Of a stretch of DNA of 64,000 bases, positions 956 to 63,972 are shown piece by piece (position 1 is the first letter of the stretch; every line of letters starts with the position of its first letter). The position numbers and the translations under genes are program-made. The notes below the pieces were generated by a model. The model saw nothing but the letters and a program-made list of their open reading frames with translations. It made no database searches and had not been told where the DNA came from. This DNA is from Balanoglossus misakiensis (Eukaryota > Animalia > Hemichordata): positions 837,622-901,621 of the forward strand of contig CM082587.2 in NCBI GenBank assembly GCA_040954595.2, read 5' to 3'.

Positions 956-2638
956 CAGATGTACAACAGATCATTTTCCAACTTCCAAAAGACTCTGCAA
1001 GATCTCATGTGGCTTGGCAGTTTTTATGAGTGGACTCTCATGTCATGCAACACTAGTTTCAAAAAAGGTTGACTTGTATTATATGGCTAGCCACCTGTTT
1101 CTATGGTAATTGACTAAAAGTCTCCTGAGATCTCGCAAGAAGCAGACAATGATCTATTATTAAAGGGCACATGTGCTTGAGTCATCCATCAAATTTCTAT
1201 ATGCTTTTGCCTCGGATCTGAGAAGCCTATCAAAGTGTGTGGTTAGGGGTAGGGTTGTGTTTAATTAGTTTTATTTTCCAGTTTGGAGGATGTTCTCGAG
1301 TTCTAGATGGGCAAGCAGCAGGAACTGAGGCAAAGTAAGCGTTCCACCAGAGTAGATCTGAGTGTAGAATCGTTACCACCTCGAGATAAATAAAAATACT
1401 TGAAATACACATGCTATTCTGAAGAGACATGTAGTAAAATTTAAGCGACTGTAAAGAATCGTCTTTGGAGTCTCTACTATCTACTGCTGGGGTTTTCAAA
1501 CAGAAAGTTAGCTGTAAAATTGTTAGTACTGACCAAAAATTAATGTGTCCATGTATGGTTTGTAAATTGTGCCTTGACAACACGCCATTAGGCGCTGATG
1601 TGTAATTAATGTCATTATTCTTCTGCTTTTCATGTATTGTAATTTCTAGTTTTTGAAATTTTTGTAAGAAAAACATGTATACACAAGGTCATGTGATGTA
1701 ATATAGCAAGAAAAGTTTAAAGAATTATTTTAAGCTTTACAGTTTGTTGTACAGTTTAATTCTCCAAATCTCGTACTTGTCTGCTTCTGTTTTTTGCCAT
1801 TGTATCATTCCCACTATGTCATTAAAAGCAAGCAGTCAAAAAAGTGAACATCTTCAAACGTGTTCCTATTTGACCTATGAACTTTGGTTGGTAGGGTCGC
1901 AAATATTGATGGCATGTAAATTATTAAGTGGTTCTCCAATTCGGACAAGAGAACTTACCCCCCCCCCCCAACCCATCACTTGAAAGGCATGTGGGTTAAA
2001 AAATAGGCATATTTTAACGAAACACACAGAAAAAAAGAGAAACAAAACCTAAGGTGTTGCGCTGACCTGATCTCTCAGATCCCGTGAGGAGTACGGTGCC
2101 CAGAGTGCATACACCTGTAAGTTTTGTGGCCTCTATTTGAATTTACAAGAACCATTTTTCCATTCATAAATTGTCATGAACCCCCCCCCCCCCCGAAACA
2201 TTTTGCCAACTTTCCCTTAGGCTCATCGAAACAAGTTTTCAAAGCCTAGTCAGAAAATAACAGTATAAAATAGTCTCTCCGCTCAAACACGGAATCAACC
2301 CCCCTCCCCCCGAAACATTTTTGCCAACTTCCCCCCTGTGCTCGTCGAAACAACTGGCGTTTTCAAGACCTTGTCAGAAATGACAGTAAAAGTACCGCCT
2401 AGCTGTCAGCTCAAACCCGGAATCTCCCCCCTCTCCCCGAAACATTTATCTCGGAACCGGAATAAATTTACTGATGAAAACTGCTTCACTTCCATGGTCC
2501 CGTGATAAATTCGTATCCCCTATACTCAGCACGCGTAGCAAGAGCCATACTGAAAAATTACCTGACAAGATTTAGATACAATGTATTTTCTTTGTACAAA
2601 CACCTGACTGTAGGCGCAGGGTCATGATCGGAGGGTGG

Positions 2639-2724: not shown

Positions 2725-3687
2725 GGACGGTGGCTGCTCAAATGAACACTATACAAATCTCAAATACACAGCAAAATAGATGAGACACAAAACCTAAGGT
2801 GTTGCGCTGACCTGATTTCTCAGATCCCGCGAGGAGTACGGTGCCCAGAGTGCATACACCTGTAAGTTTTGTGGCCTCTTTTTGAATTTACAAGAACCAT
2901 TTTTCCATTCAAAAATTGTCATGACAACCCCCCCCCCCCCCCCCCCCGAAACATTTTGCCAACTTTCCCTTAGGCTCATCAAAACAAGTTTTCAAAGCCT
3001 GGTCAGAGAATAACAGTACAATTAGTGTCTGTCCACTCGAACCTGTAGAATCACCCCCTCCCCCCGATGTTCACATAAATGTTTGAAACTACAGATCTCA
3101 AATAAACAGTAAAATGAATGAGAAACAAAACCTAAAGGTGTTGCGCTGACCTGATCTCTCAGATCCCGCGAGGAGTACGGTGCCCAGAGTGCATACACCT
3201 GTAAGTTTTGTGGCCTCTATTTGAATTTACAAGAACCATTTTTCCATTCATAAATTGTCATGAACCCCCCCCCCCCCGAAACATTTTGCCAACTTCCCCC
3301 CGTTTTCAAAGCTTAGTCAGAAATAACAGTAAAAATAACGTCTCTCCGCTCAAACACGGAATAAACCCCCCTCCCGCCAAAACATTTTTGCCAACTTACC
3401 CCCCCCCCCTGTGCTCGTCGAAACAAGTGGCGTTTTCAAGACCTTGTCAGAAATGACAGTAAAAGTATCGCCTGTCAGCTCAAACCCGGAATCTACCACC
3501 TCCCCCCCGAAACATTCAGCTCAAACCCGGAATAAATGTACTGATGAAAACTGCTTCCCTTCCTTCGTCCCGTGATAACACGCGTAGGAGTAACTATACT
3601 GAAAAATTACCTGACAAGATTTAGATACAATGCATTTTCTTTGTACAAACACCTGACTGCAGGCGCAGGGTCATGATCGGACGGTGG

Positions 3688-3772: not shown

Positions 3773-5158
3773 GGACGGTGGCTGCTCAAAATCTCAAATA
3801 CACAGCAAAATAGATGAGACACAAAACCTAAGGTGTTGCGCTGACCTGATTTCTCAGATCCCGTGAGGAGTACGGTGCCCAGAGTGCATACACCTGTAAG
3901 TTTTGTGGCCTCTATTTGCAACCAATTTTACAAGACGGTCACCAAAAACGTCACTCATCAACAAAACCTCAAAATTTGTAGCGAAATGAACGGGCGGTCC
4001 GGAACAGGCCTTCTCATGTACATTACACTGTGTTGGTTTCTCCTTGGCCGGACGAAACACCCGAAAGCAAGTGAATTTTACGAAACCCCGGCCACTTCCG
4101 ACCCGCTAAACCAAGGTTACCATAACTTAGATATCACGAGTAGGTGGACAATCTGGCAAAGTTACACAGCGCTGATTTTGGAGGTCCTTCGAACGCAGCC
4201 ATGAAAATTCTCCTGGAAAACACGCGTGGTTGCATGTTAATTACTTGACCCACAACTCGCTTCTGATTGGCTGATTGGTGTTCGACAGGCTACGATATCA
4301 CCCGCCAAGGGCGTGATTGAAAATTAGCATCCACGTGTCAAATGAAAGCGCAGCGCCAGCCAGCGGTGGGAATGGAGCAGGGGAGCGTTTGCCGCAGCCG
4401 TCCCAGCTACGGTCACCATAGCCATCTAAGAGTTTGACCAACGCTTCCAGAACGATAATATTTTCGATTTAGAGTAGAATCCCACCGAAATGCTTGAAGC
4501 AACTGAAACCAAACCCGTGGTTTGCGTAATTTATCAACTCTCACAACATACACAATTAAAATTTAACAAAGCGAGATCTGTAACTTTACACTAGGTCAGT
4601 GGAAAACAAAACTATTTCTAGCAACATTTTAATATCTACAACGTAATGATGTAATGTGTTGCCCGGGGTTGGAATGGAGACAAGTTCTTTATACATCTTT
4701 GTAAAATTAAATGTGTGTCACTGATGACATTTTCTGTTTGTTCTATCACATAAATTAGCTACATATCAATATAAAACTGTGTAGGCCTAATCCGTTCGCA
4801 AACAGGGTTGTATAGGTACAACTGTCCTGGTTGTTGGAAAGCAAGATAGGTCCTACATGTAGTTACATCCCGCAACTGAATCAAAGAAATATCTACCTTG
4901 AACCTTTTGACGTCTCAAGAGAGATTCGCTGTGCACGTTGGTCCATAAGCAACAAAATCTGCGCTAAGCCTAAACAGGTAAGATTAGCGAACGTTGGTTC
5001 TGTGTATCAATCAAATGCAATTTCTTGCTCTACTCCAAACAGCATACAGGATCGTAACCATGCAATGATATAAAAAAAATCCTTCATGACTCTAAATTAA
5101 CATAAGATAATATGTTTCCATTGATTTCAGTTGGAATCCCGTTTTATCCACGACGATA

Positions 5159-23500: not shown

Positions 23501-26500
23501 TTGTTTCTACTTTCCGTAACTTAACTGATGCTCAAGGCCTTTCTAAGACCAGTATAAAATTCATAATTCGACATCTTTTTGGTTTCCCAATCTCCAAGTA
23601 TCTGCTGAGGTACCCACCTGGCATACAAACACAAGTAAAACGCCCAGTTCCATCCAGGCAAGTTCCATGATTCAAACACGGCCACGATGCACACTCATTG
23701 ATGTTGACTTCACAGCGTGGACCAGTGTATCCAACAGCACATTCGCATCGGAAAGTTCCTGGTTCATTGACGCATCTGCCACCATGCTCACAGGGATCGT
23801 ACTCTGTAGTTCATAGAATAAAAATAAATAAATCAGTTGTCTGTCTTCTGCACAATATATATCATCTCTCTTTTCACACTGCAGACCAAAATGGCAGAAC
23901 ACAATTCAGGGAAGATAACACTCACCTGTGTCACATTCATCAATATCAGTACTGCAGTCTGTTCCGTTATATCCATTGGGACACGTGCAAACTGCATCGC
24001 CAGAGTCCGGGATGGTGTCGCAGGTAGCACCAGGATGGCAAGGGTTGCTAACGCATGCATCGTCCAGGTGGCACAACAAGCCTGTCTTACCAGGTGCACA
24101 CTCGCATACAAACGATCCAACCCTGTCGTGACATGTACCACCGAAATAGCACTCTGCGTTGGCGCAATCGTCGATGTTCTCACTGCAGTCGTCTGCTGTC
24201 CAGCCACTGACACAGACACACATGTAACTACCTGGACTGTTGAAGCAGGTCCCGCCGTTCTTACACAGATTGTGATTCAAAGCACACTCATCCACATCCA
24301 ATGTACAATGTTGACCTATAATATCAAATTACAAATTCAATGTTAACCTATTTCAGTATCAGACTTGCTCTCGATAAATCATTTTCACTGGTGAAGTAAA
24401 AAGCCATTCTTATGTATTTTGTAAAAATGTATGTATGCATAAAGACATATAAAACAAAAAATGATCTTAGAAGCCAAACATCTAAACCTTTGTGCACTAT
24501 GAATGTTAAACACAAGGCTCAACCCACATGTAATGTATCCAACTGAAACAAAACTGCCAAGTGTCAAGTTACAAAGCAACATACAATGAATGAATTTAGA
24601 AGAAGACGTACCTGTATATGAGCTTGGACAATCACAAGTGTAGTCATTGACTCCATCAATACATGTTCCTCCGTTCATACACTCATGATTGATGCAATCA
24701 TCTATGTTGATCTCGCAGTCATGACCAGTGAAACCTACAAGAGAAATGGAAACAACACCAAAACATATTGAATAGTTCAGTATAAATCATTGAAACTGTG
24801 GAGAAGAAAAAAACATGGTCCATCTATGCAGAGTTTTATACGTGAAAGCTTACAAACCTCGAGGGCAGGCACACTCATAGGTGAGAGTCCCAGTGACAAT
24901 ACATGTTCCTCCGTTAAGACAGCCAGATGGATTGCATGGTACGAAGATATACTCGCAGTGAAGGCCTCTGTATTGGGGTGTACACTGGCACTCGTATGAG
25001 CCATGTGTGTTCATACAGCTTCCACCATTCTGACATTGTGTTGGATACAGAATGCATTCATTGATGTCAATGTCGCAGGTGGATCCTGTAAATCCCACCG
25101 GACAGGTACACTGAAATCCATTCTGTGGCGAAGAATGACATGTTGCGCCATTCTGGCACGGGCTGTTGGCACATCGATCTATATCTTCACAGGTTGGACC
25201 TAAAAGTAATCAAATAAAATCATGATTACTGCCCTGAAAAGACTTTAATATTCGAGATTTTTAAATGTACAGATCAAAGGTACAGATTTCAATGCTGCAT
25301 GTCATGTTTATCCGTCAGACAAAAGGAAAGAAATACTGAAGGTGTGAATATTGGAAGAGTGTAAACATTTCTGCTGTGAGTACCACACAGAAACCATAAC
25401 AATTACTTTGGTTGTGTAGACTGTGCTTTCATCGTTTTTCTAAACGTGCAGTGAAAGAAATCCATTGTTTTGGATTTTTACTGACATTGGCAGGTTTGCT
25501 ACAGTACTTCATTTGTACTTATTAAGGGGACATTATCTGTAACTTTTGCCTTTTTCTGCATTTGCATCCCATGGCTGTTACATGTACAGAGCATATCAAT
25601 ACTGGTAAAACTATTTTACTCTCATTCATTTCAAACCTCGGCTAGCGCCAATATTAAACAGATATTCAGTGGTTTGAGTGTATTTTTTTCCCCTTCTGAA
25701 TAGCGACAAATGTTGATAAGGGGTGTGAAAAGGCCGACTGAATAACAGTTTCTCTGTTTTGGCAAACTTCCAGGGTTGAACTGTTTACCTGGGCTGGGGG
25801 CATTAGAATACCCATTATCAAATTAGCAACATTGAGTACAGCCTCAGAATGTGAAATTCATCCCTTCTGCCTAGCGGTTCAGCTCTGTGCAGACTTTGAA
25901 ACCGGTGTAACAGGGTTCACAATGCTCAGACTAGAGTCACTGGAAAATCCTGGCAGTCTCCAGGAGTTCCTTCACTGATTTTCCAGGAAATATTTTGGGG
26001 GTAAAAACGACCCCTTTGCAAACCCTGCAATAAAGATAAGATGAGCACCAACCTGTAAAGCCAATTTGACATACACATCCGTATTGGTTCAGAGATCCCC
26101 TCAGTTCACAAGTCCCACCATTCCTGCACGGCTCCGTGTCACAGATCGACTCATCACGGTATTCACAAAGAGTACTGGAGTAGCCAATGGGACAATTACA
26201 GGAAAAACGTGCGTCATGGGTACTGATTGCAACAATGCAGGTACCGCCATTCGTGCAGGGGTTGTTGGGGGCACATGGATCTGGGAACTGACAGGTCTCG
26301 CCAACATATCCTGTCACGCAACTGTAATGAAAAATATTGAACAAAACGGGTTAATTAATTAAGAATTGAGAAAAGTGGAACCTGTGAAATGAAACATTCT
26401 CAGAATTGATACAATCAAATGACATCTTTATCAATTTATGTCTCTTACTGAAATACGTCCCACAAGAAAGCCTTTTTGCATTATGTATGTGTATATTATG

Positions 26501-44664: not shown

Positions 44665-47600
44665 ATGGTGCGGAAGTTGAAATTTCACGAGCAGAAGCTG
44701 CTGAAGAAAGTCGATTTTATATCATGGGAGGTCGACAACAACTTACACGAAGTACGGGTTATGAGAAAGTACCGTATACAGAAAAGGGAGGACTATACCA
44801 AGTGAGTAGCGATCATCTAATAAGACCACGTGCGTGTTGATTGTATACAGCTAGCTAGGGGTTCGTGTACAGTATAAGCATATGGGGGCTGCCATTTTGT
44901 ATCCACGCATTCTGGCGTTTTGTTGAACTCATTCGTTTTTATCGCGATGCTTGAAATTATTTATTAATTTGAGAGAGAAAAAACAGAAACCCCAATAAAA
45001 TGTTACAATAGGTGAACAATCCAGCACCCAGTACTGTCACTTAAATGTGTGACTTCGTTTCGTTTTTTTCTATATCGCATGCCAACCGTTGAGGGCGTCA
45101 TATTATGTTATTTTTAGGAAAACATAATGTTTTGGGTATTATATATTGTTTTCCACATGACTACATATTTTTTTATTTTATAGATATAATAAATTAAGTA
45201 GGAACATTCGGGAACTTCTTGAAAAGATCAAAAAGCTGGATGTAAAAGATCCTGCAAGAGCTGAGTACACATCACAACTCCTGGAAAAATTGTAAGTGTT
45301 GAGTGGAGAGTATATTAAATTTGTATGTATGTGGAAAGTCCAGTAAGAGAAATGCCAACCAATAGAGGGCATCCATCTTGAGTAGGTTTTTGCCTTGTGT
45401 TAGGGGGTCAATATCATATTTAAATATTTGCATTGTGGGTAAAAGTGTCGACAATACTGAGACAAACTGTAGTAAGAATTTTAGAGAGATGATATACATT
45501 ACCATCTTCATAAATGGGTGAACTTTTGTCCTGGCCTTTTGTTCGTATGAAATTATTACAAACAAACAACATTTACTTAATTGTATTACTTTAATTTCTT
45601 TGTTATAAAATGAGTTATATTGGATGAGTTCATAACTCTTCCAAAGTGTAGACTCATGCCAACAAAATGCCAGGATGTAAAGGTCATATAGGGGTCATGA
45701 AGGTGGCCTGCTGTATGACTTCTATCTGGAATTACTTTGTTCCTGAATTGTGAAACAGAATAAAGGTCATGTCCAGGTCAACCTGACTGAACCAGATATC
45801 CCACTTTGCAGGAAATAGTCCTTTCTCTGGCCTTCACCTTAAGCAGGGGTCATTTCCCCTAAGTAGGTCAGCCCATGGTCAGCCCTGGTATACCTATACC
45901 GGTGGTTTTGTTGGGTCCCATTGGTATGTACCATGGGACCTTATGGGATCGGTTATGTATGTATGTATGGATGGATGGATGGATGGATGGATAGATGTAT
46001 GTCTGTATGTCCGTCCACATCAAAAACTTGAAAACCGCTGCGTGTATCACCTTGATATTTGGTGTGCTGATGCAGGCTGGGCTGTAGATGGGAGTTTGTT
46101 CAAATGAAGTTGTCATTGCCAAAAATATGCAAATTAGTTGGAAAAATTGGATTTTGGTCAAAACTCAGTAACTCAAGAACTACTGGTCAGATTGCTTTGC
46201 AAAGTGGTGTGTATTTACTTTATTGAGTTGTTTTAATTAGGCAGAAACTCCCTCCTGTTATTCACATAAACACAGCAAATTCCTGAATGATTACATAACT
46301 GGCTAAGTTTTAATGAGGCCAGCTGTTCTATTTAGTGTATGTACAGTACATATGAAATTGGCAGCTTATGGGTCAGTCAGTGTTTGCCCATTGAGCAAAG
46401 TTGAACTTCATTGGAGAAAAGAAGAACCACTCCCGTCGGTCTTAATTTGCATTTTAACACTTTATTTTGCATTTCAATACTTGATTTAAATATGAGAAAA
46501 GCCTAACAGTTTTGTCTCACTGTAGTTAAAGTTTTGGACCTAGAAATATAAATAGTTTGTGTCCATGAGTTTGTATTGGGGATGTGTTAGCACTCTGGGC
46601 ACCGTACTCCTCACGGGATCTGTTAGCGCAGGTCAGTGCAACACACCCCAAGCTTTTTGTATCGCCTTCTTTTGCTGTGATTTGAGAGCTATACAGTGTT
46701 CATTTTGTAGACACAGGGATGTTTATGTTTGTGAGAGGCTCGCGCGAGTCTGCCATTGTATTGTTGTGTGCAAAAGAGGTCACGGGAGTTTGGGGATGTG
46801 TTAGCGCTCTGTTCACCGTACTCCTCACGGGATCTGTTAACGCAGGTCAGCGCAACACACCCCAAGCTTTTGTATCGCCTTTTGCTGTGATTTTAGAGGT
46901 ATACAGTTCATCTTTGCATTCATCGTCCCATCAGATCTCTGTGTCGACAGTCCGATGTTAGATTGTTGTTGGGTCCCATTGGTATGCACCATGGGACCTT
47001 ATGGGATCGTTGCACCTGTATGGGATGGATGTACGTCTGTATGTCTGATTACATAACTGGCTAAGTTTTAAAGAGGCCAGCTGTTCTATTTAGTGTATGT
47101 ACAGTACATATGCCATTGGCAGCTTATGGGTCAGTCAGTGTTTGCCCATTGATCTCTCGCTATGTGTGTGTGCATGTGTCTGTCTGTATATGGCCATGTA
47201 CTCCGGTGTAGACTTTTTCTTGTGTAATCACTCAATGGGACCACCGTGTCCTTGACGCGATTTTTATAAAAGGGCGGTACCCAGGTTAATGTTACCAGGG
47301 TTCCCCTTGGTATATCAATGCGGCCAAGAGTGTTTAACTGGGTTCCCTTCAATCTTCCCCAACTTCAGCAGAGACACTGTATACCTATGCCATGCCCATG
47401 TGTATTGTTCACTGCAATTCACCACATCTGATGACCCCTGGTTATTTCACCAGTCACCACTCATGTAATATCTGAACTCAAACTCAGTGGTTACACAGCT
47501 AAATACTAGAAACCTGTGTAACAGACAAAACACCATGTATTAGCCAATAGAAATTTCTCATTTGGTGTCTGAATAATGGCTGTAACATAGCTCATAGCGC

Positions 47601-50600
47601 GGTAAATGCACCTACTTTATATGTTACACAGCTGTGAAGGACCATGACTGCTGTGGGGCTAAAATTGACAAGGCTGGTACGGGGCGTGTGAGAAGGGTTG
47701 TAACAGAAGTGAAGGAATAGAGCCATGGGGCAGATAATCCCTGGGGCCAGTGCCGTGGTGTGGGAATCCTGTGATAGACCTAAAAATAAAGCATCTGTAC
47801 CAGTACATTGCAGGTTTCCCACACTCTTGTTTAATACAGGGCTTTTAGAAATGGCCTGTTGCAGAGTGTGAGCTATATGAAAGTTGCAGGTTTTTTTTCT
47901 TTCTGTTGTACAAGGTTGCTGGTACAAACTGTTCAGTGGTTTTCCATGTAAAAAATAAAACACTGTGACCCCTGCACAAAGATGTACCGGTAGTTAGGTA
48001 AAGATAATAAAAGTAGACATTTATACAATAAGTATCATATTATTTCTGAAAGTAAAAATAAAATAAAGGAATGTGAGAAAACTGTATGTGTATCTACAAT
48101 ACTGAAATGATTTGCCTCTTAATTAAAATAAACTTTTAATGATTATTCTTTTCTGTCTGGTTGTGTTGCGATAAAAAGAAACAAAGGAATTGTGCATGTC
48201 CACATTTTCTGTTGAAAATTCCAGACCTGTCCAAATGTTTTTGTTTTGTTTTGACATATGAGTGTTGAGAGTTAATTATGTACATAAATGTCTTTGTTTT
48301 ATTATCCACCAATGATTATGTATTATACTTGAAATATTCAATACTATTGAGTGTACAGTTAAATATGTATTTCTACATACCTGGCTGTGACGTACTATTG
48401 TGATGTTTGAACATGTCTTCTTGGCCTGGTTGTGAATTCAATTGTTGATGTACAAAATGAATAGCTTTTATTGATATATCATTCACTAAACAAACATTAA
48501 AATTAAGACAAAGAAATATGATTATCTGATAAATGGTTGCTTAATACCATACATCTGTGTATAATGATTGCGATGATGATCTAATCCTGATGCGGTTATT
48601 TTGTGACACCATGATAATTTCCTCCAATTGTTTGCATTATTTCCTATAGATCTGTATCTTTTTTTTACTGGTAACTGCTGTTGATATATATTAAGTATTA
48701 TTAGAAAAATAAGAGTCGAGTTTAATGAAACTTTCCATCATGCACCAAGACGCCAGACGGAAGGTTCAATGACTTGCTTAAAACATGTGATAACTTTGTC
48801 GTCTGCAGCCAGCACAGCCCGATGGTTCCAATTCAACAAGATGGTTCTGGTTGAAGCACTTGTATTGTGAAGTGGGAGCTGTGTAGGTGTTTATTGATGG
48901 AGGAAGCCAGATGCCAGATTTCAATGACTTTTAAATTTGATGTCACACACACAGAGTTTATTGTGTCATTTTTCTCACAGAGATTGTAGTGACATCACCA
49001 TGGCAACACCAATTGCATGGGCCAGAGCCTGTGAGTTATATCCCATAATTCCACCGGCAAAACCCTGAACAGTCCAGTTGACTTCTTTCACCCTTTGCCT
49101 CCAGTTTATTCGAACAGCAAAACAACCACAAACTTAAAGACACTGAGAATATTTTGACGTGCATTTGTGAGTAAATAATGTTTTCATCTTGAATAGAGCA
49201 GGTGCCGAGAACTGACGGAACCGTGCAGCGCACACGTGTAATAGTCCAGACTTACATACAACCCCCTCCAATGCATGCATGCATTCCTGCCAGTTTGCTA
49301 TGTGATTGTACATGCCATTGTTTGTACTTTCAATAGACTTGTATTCTTGCAAATGTAATGGACAGTATTTGAATACTAGACACATGACCCCCCTCCCCAA
49401 TCGTTTTTTTGGTTTGTTGTAGTCTTTAACCATCGCTGCTGTTGCCTCGTCAATATCGTGGATTTTTAAGTGGTATATCTATGTGTTTTTCTCTCCTATC
49501 CTTTGTAATCCACTTGGAATAAATTTTTGGCCCAGCGAGCGGTCGGTGTCGGGTTCCCATAAGGAGAAGACAACCGGTCTTTCACACTGTACCCTCTGGG
49601 TAGAATTTTATTATGGTTGCACCCAAGTCAAGGTCTCTAGTCATAGCGCTGGTTCTAGGAATGATGGTTCTGGCTTCAATTTTGAAAGTATGCAGACAGG
49701 GCGCTTGTACGTTTGCTAATGGTTTGCTGAAACCATCTTGCCACTAGAATCTGCCAGACTTAGGTATTAAACTCTATGTTGTTGTTGAAACACACTCTTA
49801 GGTCAATGAACTGCTAGATACATTGTACTAAACCATAAGAACACAGTGTGTGTGATTGTGTGCATGTGTGTGTGTGTACATGTGTGTGTGTGTATAGATC
49901 TGCAAGCATTGATACAGCATATACATCTATGCATTGCAATTACTCATGCGTATGATTAATACAAGGCACCGTCTGACTTGTTATTAAAAACTTAATAATG
50001 AATATGACCTAGAGTACACCAGTTAATGATATATGGTTACCAGTCCATACTGCCTTGCTTCTGCAGATCTCCAGTAGTTCCACACATTTGATTTTTTTGT
50101 GTTGAGTATTGTGAGCGCTTCAGCTGATGGCACCATGAAACCCCAATATGTTCAGGGCAAGGTTTGAAAGGCTAAGGGGAAAATGTAAGAGTCGGTGACA
50201 ATGATCATGAAAGAATTCAGTTCCCGCCAAAACATCACCATGCAAGGACACATCACAGACTTAATAATAACCCTGTCTGGGTTTTCTGTTTGAGAACTCC
50301 CTACTGTCTTTTTCAGGTGAGTTTGGCCTTCACTAGCATTCCAGTGTGTATATGAAATAGAAAGTTATTCAAAGCAGAGACTCCTACAGTCTCTCATCCC
50401 ACGGTGCTCATATCCAAGTGGGCTTGTCCTCTCAAGGTTATTCTTTTGTTTCCAGTTCTGTTAAAATCCCGATTTTAGATTCAAATTACCTGTGTGTATA
50501 TGTGTGTGTGTCTCACTTGCTGAAAAGGTGTACTGGGTCATGAAGTCTTTAGGCGTTTTTGTCTTTTGATGTTAGACCGTGGGGATGCTGCCGGGCGTGT

Positions 50601-53600
50601 GGACAGCCATTGCATAATTTCCCTAGCAACAGAGGTTGTTGTCGAGGTGTCTTGGTGAGTGGCATACCACTGGCTGTTTGTAAAGGCGGGCGATGAAAGC
50701 CGACTTCACTCCATGCTGAAATGTTGTGATCAACAGTGAACATGTAAGAAATTGAAGAGTTCTTCTGAAAAAGCCACTCATCAACAACATTTTATTGTTG
50801 CCTATTTCTGGGATACATTAATCTGTCATTTGATGAATAAATGTTTGTATTATGATGTTATTTATGGAACATGTTGAATCATATGGTTTGTATTAGCAGT
50901 CCCTGAGGTTCTAGCTTAGGCCCGGCATTGTCATTTTCAAATTGGTGCCAAGTGTTTATCACAGGCAATGACCCTTCACTGAATTGCATTTGATCTCTGA
51001 CTATAAACATTATCTATTGGATTTCACTTTAAGCTCGATACAGCTTTCCTGGTCTAGAATTTCTCTCTTACTGCTTCTGTACACCTAGTTTTTAAACTTC
51101 AAGTATCAGAAAGCTCAACGAGAGGGTCTTATCTGACTGTCAGTGTTAAATATGCGGGAGGATCACTTCAAGTCAACTTCAGTTTATTTCCAAGTGTAGT
51201 TTAGAATCTATCCTTTTCTTGATCTTGCCAAAACGAGCCAATAAAAGGAAGGATAGATTCTGTTCAAGTACCAGTCCACGCTCTTCATATTTGGCGTGTC
51301 TCCAAAAAGCCATAAAGGAAACACTGCATCTGATGGGTCAATAGTTGACTCTGACACACTTGAGTACAGATGTATATGTCTATATTTATCAGGGTACACA
51401 AATGAGTTGTTCTTTAGACCCACGAGATTTTGGCTGAAGTGTCTGACCCGCACCCATGCGTGCTTCATCTGTCTTCAAAACGTGTACATGTGTAAAGGGT
51501 ACAAAGTGTGTGTTTATCAATGTTTGTCTGTTTGTTTGTGTACATGTCCCTTGTAGTTGCAAGGTGCTGATAATGGTTGATTGGGTGTTTGGCTGTATGT
51601 GTCTATGTATATGTAGCATATCTGCCATATAAACGCACAAAATATCATTTGACATGAGTGCAGTTTCACCATCCACTGATGTCATACTGAAATTTAATAA
51701 CACCAGTCTTGAATAGTTAATGATGACATCTAGTTCTTCCTGTGATGCATGATTGTGGCTTGTTTGCTGTAATCCGACCATTTGTGCAATCGTAATTCTT
51801 TCCAGTTCTGCCCCAGATGAATTATCAATTTATTATTATTGAAAAACGATATTCAGTTTTACGGCACATCTCGTTTGTCAGTGATATGACTGACTTACTG
51901 GGTGATGATAGTCAAATGTCGAACGTGATCAACCTCTACTTGTATTTCATAGATTACATATTTGTCAACCTTAGTGGCACCACACAGACATCTCCAAACA
52001 TTACAATCAAAATCTTGTTACTAGCTCCACCAGAAGATGTCTGCCAGGCTAACACTCTGATAACAAGTTTATATTTAAAGCAACAAAAGTATAAAATCCA
52101 CACAAAGTTGCAGACTTCTGTCTGAATTTTAGTAAACTTAATCAGTTTTAAAGTACTTCTGCAACATGATTTTACTTTGTGTATATCTAAACACTTTGAA
52201 GGGTTACGTATAAGCGACTGTATTGACAGTATTTTTGAAGGCAAAGGTTCATGCACGATCTAGTTTTGTTGTGGTGTTACCAGAGTGCTGTCAAGCTGAC
52301 GAAGAACTGTATGGAAGGGTTGCCTCTCCCATCCTTTTATCACAAACACCATGTACTGTTGTGCTCAGACAATAACCTTGAAACAATTGCTGTTCTCTGT
52401 CCATTGAGAAAGCTCACAATTTCCAAATAAATCACCCCATAAAGAATAAGTCGGGTCTTTAAAATCATTGAATCTGTCCACTGGGCTGTTGAGATTGCCC
52501 TAGGCTAGACGTTGTTTTCTCACTGTGGCCCCCTGATAGCCTGCATCTATGAAATACGAGGGCTCCCTTCAAGACATGTGACATCATGGCACTAACATAA
52601 AGCATGGATTGTTTGTTTGTAGACTGGGTGCACAGAATACAAGCACAGAACCTGCAGTCCACACAATGTAGAAGATAAAATCTTGACAAATGGCCGTATA
52701 CTGGAAATGATATCAATATCTGTTTTATTTTATGCATGAGATATTCCTGACTCCTGGATAAGGGAGAAGCAACACGAAATAAAATCCCTTGCACTGTAAG
52801 GACACGACATTGAGGCCAAATATGTCCTGCTCTCAAACTAACCAATTCTTCCTGTAAGTCCTTATACCCTTACAGATAATATGGATAATTTTCTTGCATC
52901 AACTTTGAATTTGTTGAGTCAGTGGCATACACACTGACCAGTACTCTTGCCATTGGACCATGCATGGTGCAGGATTTTTTTTTTCAACACACACCTCCAT
53001 CCAGGCAAGTAATTGTGTCATGCCTAGTGATACTATGTCTGGCTTGTATCATAGGATAATGTGATATCATAAATCATTGTCCTAATGGAAAAAGAATTAT
53101 GTCCATTGTGACCAGAGAACATTAAGATGACCCAGTTTGAAGTCTTAATAAATAACTTGTTCAGTGCAAAATGAATATTTGCTTCTTATGTAATTGGTGA
53201 TGTACTCTCTTACAAACTATGACTGTTCTGCAAATGAATGCCATAGCTACATTTCTGTATGTAGAAAACTTTCAGTTGTATTGAGTGTACGTTATGAGTC
53301 CTGCACTCAGTCACTTCTGATCATTATGGTTTGTCCTGGTTTGTTTTTTATTACGGTCACTTTGTTTTGCTTGAGTGACCATTGAATGTGAACTCTGACC
53401 TTAGTCCAGGGTGATCTCCAGTCCCTGAACACTTCCATATTTGGGTCATCTCCCATAAGTTTGTTTTTCTTTGAAGAATCTAAATCAAATGAAATAAGTA
53501 GTCTTATTTCTATTATATAAATTATGTTTCTGTGCCACTATAGTTTATTATATGCTTGATGAATTGGGTTTATTTTGGGAGTTTTATTGAATCTGGCTAA

Positions 53601-56600
53601 TACAAAGGCCTAAATACAAATCTACCCCAACAAAGACAATATCCATATACGATAAGCTTTGTCAACAAGTCTGAGTACCAGTTATAAGAAAGTAGTGGGT
53701 ATCCTGAAAGATATAATAATCATGTTTATACAGAACTTCATATAGTTCCTTTGTTTCTAGAAAGGCTGATTGAATCGCTCGGTATGGATTTAAAGAAAGA
53801 AAGATGAGATGTCAACGTGTTGCTTTTTTTGTACTGCCTACGGCGTTTGGCAGCATAGCCTCAGCATTCATCAACTCAAACAGGTGCTGCCAGTGAGAGA
53901 GGGCCCTTTTTTGTGCAAAAATGTGTTTGAAACAATTTTGTAGTGGGTGTGTACAATGAATTACGGCACAGCTGGGACGGCAATTCAGATGGCCGGCCCA
54001 CACCACCAAGAAGGTCACCACCTTTGCAAGACAAACTTTTCCAAATCCTCATGATTATATACAAACGCGAGATTTTTAAGCTTTGCAACCATACTGTGGA
54101 CTTACATCATGCTTTTCTCGGTGGAACAGTGATAACTGCTTGTAAGATTTGTTTTCTGGGCGATCAAGACAGGAGGGTGGGAAAAAAGGGGGGAATGAGA
54201 TGATTTGTCATGCCCATGGGTTGTAAAAGAATTATGAGCTCTATCAGGACAAATAGTCATGAGCAGGTTGATTGTATGAGGCACAACACAGCTTAGTGCA
54301 GGAACCTGCTTCCTGATATCTATCAGTATCACATCTCCATTGACATCATCAACCAAATGTGGACAGTTGTAGGATTTTACATACAGGACTTGAATGAAAT
54401 TCTAGTTTCACATCAGAGGAAAAGTCCATTCATACAAATGTGTTCACACAAAAATTGTTAAGAGTCTTCAAGACAGTTGACTGGTGCAGTGCTTTGTTTT
54501 GTTTTGTTTTTCACATTTTCTGTTGTGTAGCAACAACCGTAGCAGCTGAAACACAAGTAGTTTTGAAGACGTTTGTGCTAAAAACTATCAAAGAAATCTT
54601 TGATATGAAAACTCCAGAAATAACGCCTGGGCCTTTCAAATCCAAGAATACCAGTGGCAGCTGGCACTGGTGAAGTAATTCCTTTCTTGACCTATTGACC
54701 TTTCACCCCTGAGGTCAAAGGATAGTGCTAAACATGGCTTTTGATACAGAAAACCGTCTGGTGTTGGGCTTGAAGAGAATTCTGCAGCCTCAAATTTCAA
54801 CGCTTTTAGTTGGTTGTTATTAGATTTAACAAGCTTGGTTCAGAGAAGCCTGTGTGACAGATGACCGCACAATATGGTGCCTGACAGGTGCTAGGGGGAT
54901 AGCCAATGCTCATATATTCAATGAACTGTGTCCAGACCCTGGCTGCACAGCTTAAAATTTCCCACGTTCTGTATACATAGGGATTTAAGCATGTGACTTG
55001 GTCTAGTCATCTGTATATGTGTACTGGTCAAACAAGCATGCCTGCAACTGATCAAATAAATCTGCCTTGCTAGCAAATTAGCCAGTCAATACCCAAAAAG
55101 AAACTGTAGGTTTTTGGTAAGCCCGCCATCGTAAATCTCTCCAGCTTGCATGTCTCTTTAAACCGACCCCATGTAACCTTAGGCATGAATATGGTCAGGT
55201 TGCTTACTATTGGTTCAGAGTTGGCAACTCTTTGAATATGGTAATTTGAGTTTGGTCTGCAGCGGATACATATCATGTGTAGCTCTGGAGTCACTGTGAA
55301 CTAGATAAAAACTTGTTCAAGATTGTATAATATAATTCCTTCTTCTGTTGGTTGTTTACAGACCTTCACACCTTTTCATTCCTCTCAACTCAACTAATGT
55401 TGCAGCCCCCAATACAATGTATATCGCAGACAAGTGCCCTAGTTACAAGTTCAGCGTACAGTGGACAGCCAAAGGGCAAAGGAGTAAGGACCAAAGATTC
55501 ATTTGTGCCCAGCAAGTCATTCACTTTAGGTAGCCATATCGCAGATTGGAATTAAAAAAACTTAACAGTCGGTGGTTAATGTTTCAGCAATAAGAAAATC
55601 ACAGAAAAATAAGCATGTTAATCTGGATGATACCATGAAAAAAAAGTTAATTTATAATAAAAAAAGATAATAACTACAGCTTATCTGTGTGTGTGGCTGG
55701 TGCCCTGCGATGAAACCAACTGATAAGCTGCCCACCCAATGAGAGATACTAGTATGATAGGGTCTGTCTCAAGATAAATATATTCCGTGATATTATCGCT
55801 AATGCGGAAACATTGCAAAAGGGTTGAAAATCATAGAAAATGACTTAATAAACAGTGGTCTATTTATCTTAAATGTTCATATCCAAGTATATTACCTGTT
55901 GTAGTAATATTTGTGAAGATATGAGCTATCATGTCAGTGATATCACATTTCATATTTTTTGCAAAGAGTGCCATAGCTTACAGAATGTATTTAACAGCTG
56001 TTGTCATGAATTAGAAAGACTGATTGTCTTGTTGGAGCCATCCTTGTGTCTGGACAGGCCACCCAGGAGTATACACGATGGCTTCTGTGTCATTTGGAGA
56101 ACTCTAGTCTGGATAATTCATAACTACTGTCACCCAAGTCTGCATACGTTTTGCTTTTTGCACATTTAGATTTGATCAACTCTACTCAACGATTTTGCTG
56201 CAAAATGCATTCCCAGAACTCCACAGAGTATGTCAAAATAGTTCCCCCTTCCTTGGTTCTTTAATGTCTGTAATTATTTAGAAACAAATAGTCAAGTAAC
56301 CCTCTATTCATCAAAGTGCTCATTAAACCTATCCCAAGGCAAGGTAAGATCAAAACAGGGCATGTTTAAGGTCGTTCTTCTTGGCTGATGTTTGGAAACT
56401 AGATTCTCCAAAGTTACCTCCCACATTGTTCATACCCTCTGGTTGATTGAGTTGAATTGCATTGCATTGTGGCACAGAATCAAGACCGATTGATTTCATT
56501 CCATCAACTTCAGTTGACCAATCAGCACCAATGTCTTACAAATCGTGCTACTACCCTGTACCCATCAATTGTTCAGGTCTATCTCAATCACAGTTTTGCA

Positions 56601-59600
56601 CCCAAAGACTCTTTCTCTGCCCCTCAAAAATGAAGTAGGCCAGTCCCCACCATAAGCTCAGCAACTATCACCCTGAGGGTCTCTCCCTTCCAATTAATAG
56701 ATTAGGCCAAAGGCTAACCATCTTGCAATCCCCCACCCATTACAGATTTTGGCCTTCTTGCAATCCAATCCTTGCAATCTCCTCCCATTAATGGATTTGG
56801 CCAATCACAATCTCCAGCCTATCACCTTTCAACCCCTCCTTCCCCATTAATGGTATTGGCCAATCACAATAAACATCATCATCATTATTGCTGGGTGTTT
56901 ATGAGAAGTAATTAGAAAGCTATGATGACAGGAAGTGTATATCATCCAAAGTGACCCTCACCCATGAATCACTCAATAATGCTCTTAAATTAAATCTTGG
57001 ATTTTCAGTGGTGGTATAGAATTGACAAAACACTTCATCATGCACTGACACCACTGTAGGAAAATGCATGTTTCATCTGAAAACATCAGATTTGTTGGAT
57101 TTCTGGAACTTGGTGATTTACTGGTATGCTGTGGTTATCAAACGGATGGTGGGGCATATGGCATTCTATGAATGTCATAAGTTATTTCAAATATAAAATT
57201 GTGCAGGAGGGGGGTACCCCAATTCAGTGGGGCATCCCTCATGAAAGTGCCTATAGTCAATTACTGGTAAATGAGTATTCCGGGGTTTCAACAGGGAACC
57301 AGTTATACAACGAACAAGATTTATATTAAAGTTAATTTGGTGTTTTATCTGGCTATTTCAACAGCTGTTAAAACACTCCATGGTATGTGATCTAAACCTT
57401 GAGTGTAAATAACATTAAACACATTTAGTGTTATCAGATACGTTAGTCACCAAGTCATTAGGGAGAACAACATGGAAAGTTAGTAGTGTTCACAAACACT
57501 CTAAAGACCTGGTCTCGGCTAAAAATCTTGGGGTGTGAACATCAGTCACAGAACTTTTAATCTTTCCTAGTTAGATTGGAAAGAAGTAAAAGGCTAATTC
57601 AGTTCGCAGTACTTCCCCGTCTTGACTGTCGATTTGCATGGTGACTGATTCTCTTGTGCTCGACACCTTGGTTCACCTGATGCCGATTTAGAGTTTGCCA
57701 AGTCAGAAATTCAATAGCAGTGGCGTGCCAGACACAAGGGACAATAACCTGACATGTTCAGATGAGAACATGTGAACTCTGAGTGCACAGTAAAGGCTTT
57801 GAAGTTCTGTGGGGTTTACTGTTGCAGGTCTGTGAATTAACTGCCATGGCTAAGTCAGTGTAAAGAGACAATTACAGCCAGGTCTGTGAAAAGATTATTG
57901 CCTTTACAATTACAGTTTGAATGATGATACTCAGCACCATTTGTTTCTCCAAAAGTTTCAATCGCAGTGTTTGACAGAACGTAAAGGTGTGATACCTTCA
58001 AACAATTAACCCAAGTTGGCGATTTATTGACCGAGGAAAGATTTGTTACTAAATGCATGATTTGCGTTCATTGGTGTGTGGAGATCAGTGCTGACTGTTG
58101 CCATGCCAGGAATAATTCCCTTACTGAAAAATCCATGCTTGATAATTATTGCATGTAAAGTGTTTGCATGGTCAAACATTTTTCAAGTGACCCAACGTGT
58201 CACCATTGTCGGTTGGCAAAGCGATTGAAGGGAATCTGCCCCCACATACCTGAGTATTCAAACCACATCATATCTGATTTATAATCTCCCTCCTCCTACC
58301 AACATTCCATGGCTCAGAAAGTCTCACTGTCGCTAGTAATCTTTGACCTCTCTGTACACGTCTAGCGTTCATTCTTTAAAAAAACCTCCAATGAAATTGT
58401 GATGAAGTTTATCTGAGTACTGTTTGAATATTTTCTTTGTCTTTATCATTTCACAGTTTTTGTCCCTTGTTCTGTAAATAATTCTTAACTTTTCTCAAGT
58501 ACGTAAGACTATACTTTCTTTGAGAAGTAATCAGGCAGAAAACTGGTATAATGATGACACTCTTGGCTGCGTGTTTTGCAAAGCTTCTGTTTGTTTAGAA
58601 AGCCCTGGGGCTTGGGGATGACTGCTCTTCCATAGCTTTCCATAGTTGACTGCGCTTTCCCAATGGAATGATAACTCATCCTCCATGCAGAGGCTAAGTC
58701 TTGGACAACAAAGATGTCTAGGAATTAGTCTCTTTCCTCAGCCATGATGTGATGGAGTCTGTGCGTGCTGATCACAGGCTTTCACCGCTCTCGGAAAACC
58801 ACTGGAGAAACTCTTGGAAAATCCAGGAATTTTAAACCACTCCAAAAAGTCCTAAAAAATAAACTCTCTACCGGAAAGCCCTAACTAACTGATGCGGCTA
58901 CCCAAAGCCGAAACTAACTGTTGATTAAACCATGAAAAACGACAAAAATTGTATTACGCAGTCACATCTTGAAGATACCCTTTTGAGGGTAAATATTGTT
59001 GAAAAACCATGGAGGCACTCCACCACAGTACTGGAATCGTGTTGTGGGTTTTAAGCATGTGAACCCACAATGATTTCTGCTTGGTTGAATTGATTTGTCT
59101 GTAGTGTCACTTTGTGTACATGTTGTTGAATTGTAATAGGCCACTGCAGATGTTACAACATGTGTACACCATAGGCAACATCTTATGACCCCATCACACC
59201 CACCCATTGATAACATAGCACGCCGCAGTCACGACAGTTGAATACAATAAGACTTAGACCATGGTCACTGCACCAAAGCTCAACCAGGAGATGATTTTCT
59301 GCACATTGCGAGACTCAACTCTCGCTGTATATTTCTCTTATCACTATGGTAGCATACCTAGTTAACTTTGTTGTCAACATACAATGAAAACTTTGGGAAC
59401 TAATTCTATTGCTGTAGGAATGCCCATCTCTGACCAACACCAGCTGTCGATAATGCTGGATAATCAGGATTTAGGCACCAGACTTCCATCCTGTGTTGAG
59501 TGGTCCCGACAAGGAGCAGTCCTTGCAAGCAGTCCAGGTTAACCCCTTCGGGATCTGTATTACCATTCATTAATTGGCATGGTGTAAACTTATATCAAGA

Positions 59601-62600
59601 CTTGATTTCAAGTTGATTAAAAATTTGATGGATTACATAACGTGGTTAGCCTTTCCGAGGTCACAGAATTAACATGGTCCATCTGCTGTAATCTGCAACC
59701 ATAGAATTTAACACAGAAAAACCTCAAGCATACCTTGAGTATTGTATTTTGTGTATTTTAGGATCACTACTAAGGTTTCACTGACTTGACGCCATTGCAT
59801 AATCACTTCTACTAGATGGAAAATGGCAAGTTTGGCCTCAAGTTTTCCTGGACAATGAGTGGAGGAAGTCCTGAAAAAGTCCTGGGATTTTAAGTGACTC
59901 TGAGTGTACAAGAAAATAACAGACAGTTTAAACTGAGCCATCAACATTTTGTATAGAGCTTAATTGTGTTTGCCTACAGATATCCCATTTTGTGCAGAAA
60001 TGAGGACAACCCTTTTACACAGACATGGTAGCTACTATGGTACATTTTTTCGCTAGACATGACAACTTTTACAAGAGGAAACCAAGCACCCTTACAATTT
60101 ACAGACAAACAACTAATACCTCCACTCCAGTACAGGCATATCGATGTGTACACCATCTCATAACAGAAATAAAATACACTACAGTCTGTATCATGTTACA
60201 AGCTAACCAATCTATCTTTAGTCATTTTCATGTCAATGGCAGTGTAAATCATCAAGATGTTTTTTCTGGACTGCTTTCAAGAAGTCAAGAAGAAAATTCC
60301 TCCTGTGTTTTTAACATGCAGGGATTGTATGCTAAGCTTGCAGTCTCCCAACCTGATGCTGTGATTGGCTTGATTAAGTGTGTTTACTTGTATTTTGAAG
60401 TGTGTGTTCCCTGTGCATTTTGCATCTTACATGTAGGCGTCCATCTGAAGGATCCAACATAGAATGGGTACTAGAAAACCAATTCAAGTCAGAAAGAGGC
60501 CAATTGATTCACTATGAATACGGGGTAACACAGACTTGTCCACACCAATCCTTGCATACCAGATTGTTAAAAAATTACTGACTTCAACTGAACAATTCAA
60601 CGATGTAATAAAATGTTCTTCATTAGTTACAGATTTTTGCCAGTTTGGAAATCTTGCATTGCTTAGTATGTCATCAAAGTTACAACACTTGCCACAACAC
60701 GCAGTCTGGGACCTACAGCAGTGGCAAGTGTGTGTGCTAGTTGAGTGTCAATCTATGCTGTAAAGCAAGGAAAGGCCTAAGCCACTGTTGGCTGTGTGTG
60801 TAAAAGCCATAAGAAGGTGGTAGTAGTCTTAAATTACTTCAGCAGATGTCTGGATGCCTGCCAAGCACTGGGAATGCCACAAGACCACTGGTAACCTAAT
60901 GAAGGCATCCTTGTGTCATTCCCAGGGATGCTGTTGCCAAGACAACAGGCATATCGTCACTGCCTCCAGATGTTAAAACATTAAACCTTCAAAGCATGAG
61001 TTATGAGAGACTGGAACCGAGTAGCCAACGAACATATCTAGTGGCAGCCTGGGCTGGTTTCTGGGGGTATTGTCCCAAACTACCTGCAGATTTACCAGTG
61101 TACGAAATAAAGCCTGTCCGACAGTCCGAGACTGGTTGTTTTTCTGTAGGACTGGTAAAAATAAAATGTCACCAGTCCGACAGACAGGTTGAATTTAGTG
61201 TGGGAGTAACCAGTGGTATCAGGGCATCTTTAAGACTTTCCCCAGTTCATGTATTGCAAATAAAAGAAACAATGATGTAAAAGCTTGAAAATTATCAAAT
61301 CAAACTGAAGTAATGTAAAGAGAAAGACAATTCCATCCCATCTTCAATTGTTCACAGATAAGGTAATAGCTTCTCAGTTGTATTTGATTACATTTAATTG
61401 TAAGGCATAATATCAGGACTGGTAAGTTTTTGGCAGGACTGGCAACTTTTTGAAGTTGCCAGTCCTGGTGACTGGTTGATATTTCCTGTGAATTTCGAAC
61501 ACTGGATTTACTTGCACTGATACACTTGTGGCCTTAGAGTGCACGTGCTCAAGGCTTCAAGTTCATTCCCACATCACCCCATCCCTGTCTTTGTTACTTC
61601 ATCAAGATCTACTTCAGCATCCCATGTGCAGGGAGTGCAGTCATGGAATACTTGGTTGTTTTTTTCTCAAGCTTTTGGGGGTATTAGGCAGGTGTTCAGC
61701 TCTGAACTCAGTGTCAGAGGGGACATTCCAATCCCAATAGCTCCAGAATTTCATTAATAATAGCATAAATAGTAAATACCACAAACTGATACAAAATATT
61801 TCATTGATTTTTAGCTGACTACAGTAACAGCTGCTTGTAACCTGGGGTGTATGCTATATGCACTGCAACCCATCACGTTGATTGGCTGTTTTGACGGAAT
61901 AGACAGACGTGCATTTGTCGTCCAGGTGATATACCGCTGCTGCCATGGTGATTTCTACCATGGGGTAACTCAATTGTAGTGTGCACCGAACATCAACATT
62001 TGGATAACATATTTGTCTTGCTGTGACGAACAGCAGGCATGGTTGCCATTAGAAGTCGAAAATTAAATTGATTTGAATATTCAGTCCAGGCTCTCGTCAC
62101 TTGGTAGGTTATACCGCATGCAAGGATTGGCTATCATGACTATGTCAAACGCTAAGTTAAATCCCAGCTCCATTTTCTCTCCCGCACATCTTTTTAAACA
62201 AAGGCCAGTGATGGCATGTGATGAATGTTATAGTTAAGCAATGATGCATCCTGCAAAGTATTGAGATCAAACACCACCCATGAACAAATTAAATCATGGT
62301 GGTTACAAGTAACTGTGATGAGACTAAGTTTCCCGACAAAAGTTTACAGGGATGATCCACCTATCTCTTTGCTAACAAGCAGAGTACAAGAAACCTGTGA
62401 GATCAGAAGTCACAGTTGAACTGTTCTAATAATTATTCTGCATACAGACTTTGAATGTTTGGACCATGATGTCACTGATAGACTTTTTAAAGGAAAACAT
62501 AAAAACAAGTAACAGAAGTCGATGACATGTCACTTCAGAAGACATAAACCTAAAGTAGTCAGTAAAACGGTGCTGTACATCTGAACATGTTCTTTTAAAA

Positions 62601-63972
62601 GTGTAAGTAGCCAATGCACATATTCTATTTATAGTGATACGGATGTCTAGCGAGTGGCGGCACTCGGCTGACTCATGCTAGAGCGGGATCACCTTTGCCA
62701 TTTTTGGATCCACAGTGACGGACACTACACGATGAAAATTTATACCAGACCCAGCGTGGCCTATCAAGTGACGCTGTTTATTGTTATACAGATATATAAC
62801 TTTTCATTGTCTCAACCCCTGATGAGAATTTTATGGGGTTATTAATATTAAATGGTGTATGAGTGCTATTGGTTTCAAGTGCAAGTATTAGAATACTGCC
62901 TCTATGCCCTGAAATGACTAATTGCCAAGATCCTGACTATCTAGTGCAAACGGAAAACAAGATTTTGTTTCATGTTTCATGTTTCATCATCTATGCATCT
63001 GCATTACTACATTATAAATCTGTCCCCATCTGCATCGACACATTGAAAGTCTGTCTGCACCTTCATTGAAAGATCTGTTCATCTGCATTTACAACAACAT
63101 TGAATTTTTAAGTCTGTGCACCTGCATTAAAAGTATTTTCATCTGCCTTTACAAATGTTATCTGTGCATGTGCATTTGTAAGTGTATAGTATGCTTTTTA
63201 AAGTCAAAACTCCTAGGCTCCAAGTGATTCTGTAGTAGAGGTCAATTGTCCTTCAACTATAGCAAGGGCACTGTGATTTTGATGAGACCTTGACTTGGCT
63301 AAGTAAGTCTCAAACGTGATATGGATTCTGCAGACCCCTCAACCCATTCACATTTATAACTCCATTGGGGTTTGACCCGAATGTGAATGACTAGGCTTGA
63401 ACATAGCCATAAATGTGGAACTTTATCTGAGAGGTATTAAAGTGGCGATAAAGTGAACATTTAATTCTCATCTTTTAAAGGTCACTATACTTGTTTTTCG
63501 AATGAAGAACAGCTTGTCATAGGAGGAGCAACATCAATGTAAATTTCACAAACACTGTAAACAACCTGCAAACATCACAACACAAACTGAGCTGCACTCC
63601 ATGGCCATGTGGTTCGTGCCTTGAGGGGGCGCTGTTCATATTTTTTACATCATGAACATAAAATGACCCTTCTGAATGTGCATATTTCAATACCTATGAA
63701 ATGATCTAACAACCTGTGATTCCAGAATATAAACGTAGCATTCTGTGTACCATTTTATATTTCAGATACAGCATGGGACTTATACCAACAAAAAGGAATT
63801 TAGCTTTATGTGAAAAAGTGACAGCATCTGCCTTTTGTAGAAGACGACTGCCAATAGTCATGGTGAAGCATCGGATGGCTCAGAGTTTGAAGTCAGCTAT
63901 CACATTTATTGAACAAGGTCATATCAGAGTTGGACCAGACATCATCACTGATCCAGCATTTCTTGTCACTAG
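44665..63972 (+). CDS. IMP3: U3 small nucleolar ribonucleoprotein IMP3 (S4-domain protein), exons 1-3; gene continues beyond the window
   Basis: Exon 1 44665-44801 [46 protein letters not shown]; exon 2 45184-45291 [36 protein letters not shown]; exon 3 63766-63972 [69 protein letters not shown]. All introns are phase 2 and GT-AG. Confidence 0.96.
45909..47265 (+). mobile_element. Helentron-associated non-autonomous element (HINE/DINE-1-like); two nested or tandem copies sharing one 3' end
   Basis: The 5' head ttgttGGGTCCCATtggtatgYaccATGGGACCttatgggatcg occurs at ~45909 and ~46966 (subTIR plus nearby inverted copy), followed by a (GTAT)n(GGAT)n microsatellite. A ~105-bp block is duplicated at 46289-46393 and 47047-47152. 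The 3' end has subTIR CAATGGGACC (47233-47242), hairpin CGTGTC-ctt-GACGCG and a T-run, matching the known HINE architecture. Confidence 0.75.
47687..48979. promoter_or_regulatory. Cluster of Su(H)/CSL (YGTGRGAA) sites; candidate Notch-responsive enhancer
   Basis: TGTGAGAA 47687-47694, TGTGGGAA 47759-47766, TTCCCACA 47816-47823, TGTGAGAA 48072-48079, TTCTCACA 48972-48979. Confidence 0.5.
49845..49893. repeat. Imperfect (TG)n microsatellite
   Basis: gtgtgtgtgattgtgtgcatgtgtgtgtgtgtacatgtgtgtgtgtgt. Confidence 0.85.
56680..56870. repeat. Degenerate minisatellite, about four units of 45-55 bp
   Basis: Recurring core cccattaatggatttggccaatcacaat, with variants ccaattaatagattaggccaa and cccattacagattttggcc. 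Confidence 0.7.
61090..61504. mobile_element. Degenerate DNA-transposon/MITE remnant
   Basis: Repeated and inverted ggactggt / accagtcc subterminal motifs at 61095-61195 and 61415-61480, ending aatttcgaacactg (CAGTG-type terminus on the minus strand). The matching other terminus was not found. Confidence 0.4.
63015..63185. repeat. Degenerate short tandem repeat
   Basis: Alternating variants of aagtctgtgcacctgcatt and tcatctgcatttaca. Confidence 0.6.

Follow-up and report, generated by a model that had tools for sequence, protein, structure and literature searches.

A branched fold recurs six times in the 64,000-nucleotide stretch of Balanoglossus misakiensis DNA that was analysed (the window). 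It consists of a three-way junction that caps a predicted rod of about 40 bp, and its pairing withstands four or more double changes by transversion that separate two lineages of copies. The repeat unit that carries it is multi-copy and about 145 nt long (Table 1). Judged from its pattern of base changes, the fold is probably under selection, and the explanation that we prefer, although tentatively, is that junction and rod form a selected, non-catalytic RNA signal of this unit, a non-autonomous retro-repeat that is possibly Penelope-related.

An earlier, sequence-only reading of the window had placed two plus-strand copies of the junction at 46577-46650 and 46791-46864, spaced 214 nt apart, and these coordinates hold. 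The three-way junction that it drew is also the predicted fold of both copies, with z-scores of -3.15 (copy 1) and -4.69 (copy 2) against 200 shuffles. In both, helix P1 (GCRCU/AGYGC) is followed by a 7-nt strand (CUGKKCA), helix P2 (CCGU/RCGG) with the loop ACUCCUC, and helix P3 with seven pairs and a variable tetraloop. When copy 1 was compared with the window by blastn, six strong matches were obtained in total, two on the plus strand and four on the minus strand at 2-4 kb, the rest being short chance matches; a covariance model built from the six copies found no seventh copy in the window. The two plus-strand copies had been described as diverged, but they are close duplicates of each other (5 differences in 74 nt), with a 3' arm identical at 32 of 32 positions and a tail identical at 24 of 27. 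The diverged flanks reported with them are accordingly seen against the 2-4 kb lineage only and not between the two copies. The ACUCCUC loop, the CUG..CA strand and GGUC, which had been called invariant, are so in all six window copies, although genome-wide GGUC varies to GAUC. At the tip of P3 the pair is U-G in the plus-strand copies and A-U in all four 2-4 kb copies, as had been noted. The outer stem, said to be rewritten and still paired, is indeed paired, but its inner pairs GUGU/ACAC are unchanged relative to the 2-4 kb copies, and the outer helix extends for about 25 further pairs past the coordinates first assigned to it.

Table 1. Copies of the repeat and neighbouring features, in window positions
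Positions	Strand	Feature	Remarks
2036..2132	-	Second-lineage copy, rod and junction	
2781..2877	-	Second-lineage copy, rod and junction	
3119..3216	-	Second-lineage copy, rod and junction	
3815..3911	-	Second-lineage copy, rod and junction	First unit of low-copy local array
44665..63972	+	IMP3	Exons 44665-44801, 45184-45291 and 63766-63972; dimer in intron 2
45905..47262	+	HINE-like (non-autonomous Helentron-like) host element enclosing the dimer	Features as in excerpts of PMC4067079
46502..46576	.	Different repeat family abutting the truncated 5' end of copy 1	TATA-like word TATAAATA at 46547
46577..46650	+	Copy 1: junction 46590-46639 and inner rod	Outer 5' arm absent (5'-truncated)
46651..46706	+	Copy 1, unpaired 3' arm and 3' tail	Shared end of the element near 46700-46706
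46707..46769	+	Inter-copy spacer with worn duplicate of the rod 5' arm	Contig depth suggests about 23-28 copies
46770..46885	+	Copy 2: full rod capped by junction 46804-46853	44 predicted pairs; -57.6 kcal/mol, z -6.86
46886..46916	+	Copy 2, 3' tail of about 30 nt	Weak AU/GU hairpin

The double compensatory change singled out in P1 by the sequence-only reading exists, copy 1 having an A-U pair where copy 2 has G-C, but it is weak evidence of selection. Three of the five differences between the two copies are unpaired and the other two are the partners of this one pair, which has a chance of 0.019 under uniform mutation. Both changes are CpG-type transitions, and under a CpG null the same chance is 0.11 (4 of the 36 position pairs among paired CpG bases). 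At 2-4 kb the pair is an A·C mismatch in all four copies, that is, in four of the six in the window, which had gone unmentioned. In contigs over the 3' partner, the A-U-pairing letter accounts for 4,154 of 7,155 in summed depth in run X1 and 3,955 of 4,899 in run X2, shares that indicate no direction for the change. The flagged pair is by itself no proof of selection and is compatible with CpG decay.

Stronger indications come from the rod and from the comparison between lineages. Against 60 shuffles each, the rod of copy 2 (44 pairs) reaches z -6.86 and those of the 2-4 kb copies (36-37 pairs) z -4.3 to -6.2. It thus folds in five of the six copies (z -4.3 to -6.9), the truncated copy 1 giving z -1.58, and the motif strand outfolds its complement in five of six copies as RNA, the exception again being copy 1, and in four of six as DNA. 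Clear double transversions between the lineages change U-A to G-C, U-A to A-U and G-C to C-G in the rod, and the P3 pair beside the loop changes from U-G to A-U. An additional rod change from G-C to A-U depends on the alignment. There are also three G-U to A-U changes, one of them at a CpG, and both arms have been shortened together. The lineages were aligned by eye from an outward walk along the pairs, and two of the changes also appear in the six-copy alignment. The three clear rod changes and the P3 change are all transversions and so are not CpG decay.

Over the 21 inner pairs the proportion of paired cells is 96.8%, and three pairs have changed on both sides, the six rows representing two lineages; in the shuffle control the cell score was reached by 1 of 500 shuffles and the pair count by 136 of 500, the latter being not significant. 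Identity between the lineages is 42/50 in the junction versus 52/93 outside it (Fisher p 8e-4), and G-U outnumbers A·C by only 8 to 2 when tallied by eye (p 0.055). The claim that the fold is under selection is therefore sustained, by the transversions in rod and P3 and by junction identity, and not by the pair originally flagged, with two lineages as its basis. CpG decay alone with a junction no more conserved than its surroundings, the outcome that had been named as speaking against selection, is not what is found, because of the double transversions and the excess identity of the junction between the two lineages. Folding is favoured in single-stranded DNA as well (z -2.9 to -5.1). The 214-nt unit folded as a circle is 72% paired (z -2.9), and the part outside the rod is near its shuffles (z -0.1 and +0.5).

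The number and extent of the copies were followed in contigs from DNA runs (X1 and X2) of one sample, possibly the one from which the window derives; three runs of it contain the region. The highest summed contig depth lies over the 33-nt core at 46590-46622, with 108,557 in X1 and 366,179 in X2, compared with about 800-1,050 and 3,000 over the spacer and about 27-33 and 85-150 over unique DNA. Such a sum does not equal the number of copies, since it includes many short contigs that overlap, and allowing for a 31-fold overcount the core copies are bounded at about 80 to 4,300; the copy estimate for the spacer in Table 1 concerns a sequence contained in one contig. Loose ends of contigs reveal further families: GAUC replaces GGUC in seven contigs in X1 and three in X2, and others have a 5-nt P3 loop or A-to-G changes opposite U in the arms. 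By eye, with the two arms not linked to each other, these family changes preserve pairing on the motif strand. Contexts diverge near 46697-46706, where depth drops and loose ends lie at 46697 and 46706, and upstream homology starts near 46771. These limits mark out the unit of about 145 nt. The shared 3' end is about 70-72 nt beyond the junction, or the cut site expected of a hammerhead. Neither a poly(A) nor a visible target-site duplication was seen in the unit. Head-to-tail copies show several spacer variants, and at one locus, that at 46.6 kb, a copy truncated at its 5' end precedes a fuller one, the 3' end being fixed.

Both plus-strand copies are sense to the IMP3 pre-mRNA, as had been proposed, and lie in intron 2 (45292-63765). 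Exons 1 and 3 match solved IMP3 chains and the three exons join in frame. The second intron measures 18.5 kb in a gene of at least three coding exons. The position in an intron is likely incidental, because the other four copies are intergenic and the motif travels in unlike hosts. Around the dimer, which it bears as cargo, the HINE-like element has two heads (45908 and 46966) that combine a hairpin with a microsatellite, and a single 3' end with an inverted repeat and hairpin at 47232-47262. The repeat that abuts copy 1 upstream has its own high depth plateau and is continued by one contig without the motif. It also contains, at 46517, what we take to be a PSE-like word, and may itself carry a promoter of the snRNA type. 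Such a promoter for copy 1 itself was rejected, as the TATA-like and PSE-like words belong to the other repeat.

Outside the motif, the array at 2-4 kb is low-copy, with an X1 depth of 62-251 across 3300-3654. An 85-bp near-perfect palindrome at 2639-2724 and 3688-3772, flanked by a 9-bp direct repeat, suggests a separate MITE family that inserted before the array was duplicated; this reading is based on its high depth in contigs, a loop that varies and sharply defined ends. Further short repeats of high depth lie at 4294-4435 and 5004-5045, and in several contigs the repeats at 3.7-3.9 kb connect with one at 4271. The G-rich subrepeats of the array include, on the minus strand at 2960-2985, a worn run resembling a hammerhead core, UUGAUGAG, followed by GAAA after 7 nt; its helix II does not form and sister subrepeats differ. 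Two GPCR-like single-exon sequences, 77% alike, flank the array (5-861 and 5159-6163). Beyond it, a multi-exon Notch gene with EGF repeats, LNR, ankyrin repeats and a PEST tail occupies the minus strand at about 12986-26350, and ankyrin-bearing pieces also occur at 7700-8650.

The junction was compared letter by letter with the hammerhead core. Four of the six fixed letters of CUGAnGA are present in all six copies, with A6 replaced by G or U and G8 by C, so that the pair between positions 3 and 8 (C-G or U-A) is absent and C3 faces C8 in every copy. GAAA is replaced by GAUC in all six, matching two of four letters, and its GA is predicted to pair with UC. The scissile base, H17, is predicted to be paired with G12 in the four copies that were folded (0.99, 0.98 and 0.98, and 0.59 in copy 1). 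Within 200 nt of the six copies no exact CUGAnGA occurs on either strand, and GAAA is not position-conserved. Because only 6 of 11 independent positions match (p 0.03, post hoc, with complementary letters counted once), descent of the junction from a hammerhead is possible, not proven, and we regard it as somewhat unlikely. Cleavage had been anticipated at about 46636 and 46850, but by sequence count the hammerhead-equivalent sites are after 46634 and 46848, and the self-cleavage by hammerhead chemistry that was implied is unsupported in view of G8C, the missing A6 and GAAA, and the pairing predicted for the scissile base. In the Poseidon element PAc of the green anole, G8C alone abolished cleavage (excerpts of PMC11167929).

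These losses also weigh on the proposal of an undescribed class of self-cleaving ribozyme, in which the junction would combine a type I scaffold with a rebuilt active site and cut tandem transcripts of a retrozyme-like family into monomers, as hammerheads do in retrozymes. The unpaired CUG..CA and ACUCCUC stay the same although the stems vary, the layout is that of type I with a bulged A five to six pairs up helix I (in the four copies walked), and head-to-tail copies occur with several spacer variants. However, with C3 opposite C8 and neither A6 nor GAAA in any copy, with the base at the expected site predicted to be paired (0.98-0.99 in three of four copies), and with active natural hammerhead variants described as changed singly or compensatorily in the core (excerpts of PMC3088659), such a ribozyme is improbable. 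Moreover, inspection by eye revealed no conserved partner with which the loop could form a pseudoknot, and no Rfam ribozyme matched up to E 10. More broadly, Rfam 15 gave no matches at gathering score over the window and none on the motif strand of any copy to E 10; pistol, twister, twister-sister, hairpin, TPP, SRP, Y RNA and vault RNA were all set aside in this way. Lantern ribozymes were rejected as having internal loops rather than junctions (excerpts of PMC11620745). An HDV-like reading of UCCUCGC fails because P3 and P1 cannot form, judged by eye against the HDV consensus, and pseudoknots of the loop with an upstream GAGG or GGAGU are, by eye, not kept in both lineages. A SINE-like domain, or retro-copies of a small structured RNA other than a hammerhead, with the junction as a protein-binding site, would be consistent with a fixed core in dissimilar flanks, which resembles the shared central domains of SINEs (excerpts of PMC4758252), and with a rod that closes beside a T run. 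We consider this quite unlikely, since no B box occurs within 200 nt of any of the six copies on either strand and tRNA genes number zero. The TATA-like word 30 nt upstream of copy 1 would favour it too, but this word is part of another repeat that also occurs without the motif, and it is absent before the other five copies.

The fold could alternatively act as single-stranded DNA, in a mini-Helentron that would have the arms as its subterminal inverted repeats and the junction as the binding site of the rolling-circle transposase. The arms can be read as HINE subterminal inverted repeats and stop about 30 nt before a 3' end, the ends being T-rich as in the HINEs of PMC4067079 (in excerpt), with no target-site duplication and no poly(A); folded as DNA, copy 2 has the junction as its minimum-energy structure, and a HINE-like element encloses the dimer. 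We nevertheless hold this to be unlikely. The 3' tails are nearly hairpin-free as DNA (-1.0, -0.8 and 0 kcal/mol versus -3.3 for the neighbouring HINE end), the arms vary between lineages and covary rather than remain fixed, runs of three G-T pairs are costlier in DNA, and no HINE head was seen around the 2-4 kb array. A neutral explanation, in which the repeat is a decaying palindromic transposon relic with double changes made by arm-to-arm repair and a tip that is young or homogenised, appears very doubtful. Repair between inverted arms yields paired changes without selection, the flagged change is CpG-compatible and mismatched in four of six copies, and only two lineages are comparable. But the most conserved part is the asymmetric tip, which is beyond the reach of such repair, the arm mismatches favour G-T on one strand, and the true palindromic MITE nearby is opposite in pattern, with perfect arms and a variable loop.

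No true homologue of the motif was found in collections of viral, metagenome and genome contigs, which contain little animal DNA, so these blanks say little about other invertebrates. The exact core had no loci in them. Stem-free patterns found 6 viral and 41 metagenome loci, none of the 47 with all three stems or a model match. Short-core patterns found 7 genome and 6 viral loci, which are attributed to chance because their best model score is 14 bits compared with 76-116 for the window copies. In the main texts of papers the 15-nt core, in four spellings, was not found, nor was a description of the motif among the papers listed; the supplements of PMC4209133 and PMC8557442 may list related motifs.

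Since the letters needed for cutting are lost, a docking signal for the copying enzyme of a mobile element is likelier than self-cutting. In the non-catalytic signal that we favour, a transcript running through a copy would fold into the rod and a partner reverse transcriptase would dock on the invariant junction strand and loop. With reverse transcription then starting in the 3' tail, copies would share a fixed 3' end and be truncated to varying extents at the 5' end, and the enzyme, possibly that of a Penelope-like element, would copy the repeat into new sites. We infer that the folded strand is RNA, that the copies move through RNA and that the partner is Penelope-like. By analogy, the truncated-plus-full tandem together with a 3' end that is fixed at about 72 nt beyond the junction points to Penelope-like mobilisation: such tandems are typical of Penelope-like elements (excerpts of PMC8557442), and in PAc reverse transcription starts 85-92 nt beyond the cut site, where its copies end (excerpts of PMC11167929). 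Counter to this reading are the position of the dimer inside a HINE-like element and a covariation drawn from two lineages. A linked reverse-transcriptase gene was not recognised within the window.

Among Penelope-like elements, catalytic mutants of PAc still inserted in vitro, where cleavage is dispensable (excerpts of PMC11167929), and some clades are reported, in the excerpted text of PMC8557442, without canonical hammerhead motifs. If our reading is correct, a shape that is selected while the catalytic letters are lost would be a natural case separating docking from cutting. If the junction does cut, it would do so by a new ribozyme chemistry.

Among known systems, the junction resembles type I hammerheads in its three helices round one junction, open at helix I, and in retaining C3, U4, G5 and A9, a 7-nt strand CUG...A, G12 and A13, and a NUC preceding helix I; the type I dimensions of a 4-bp helix II and a helix I of about 6 bp are also matched (excerpts of PMC4209133). 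It departs from type I hammerheads in a long, stable helix III and in having a 40-bp rod as helix I. Repeated, partly tandem copies in an animal genome are shared with the hammerheads of Penelope-like elements and animal retrozymes (excerpts of PMC4209133, PMC7229834 and bioRxiv 10.64898/2026.07.22.740005). However, animal (non-LTR) retrozymes have an intact type I hammerhead in each tandem unit, whereas here the copies are tandem and the core is absent. Similarly, PAc has a hammerhead-type fold a short way before the fixed 3' end of its copies, but with an intact core and a linked reverse transcriptase/endonuclease gene (excerpts of PMC11167929). The non-circularly permuted hammerheads SGC and CSG are likewise hammerhead-related and missed by standard searches, but they retain the full CUGAnGA and GAAA blocks (excerpts of PMC10085705). 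With HINE/DINE-1 elements the repeat shares the lack of a target-site duplication and, if its arms and ends are so read, subterminal inverted repeats and T-rich ends (excerpts of PMC4067079), but it has no firm 3' hairpin, its arms covary, and it is self-paired over its entire length, with a branch at the tip. The undescribed, probably selected fold of this repeat family is best filed with the structured signals carried by mobile elements and not with the hammerheads.
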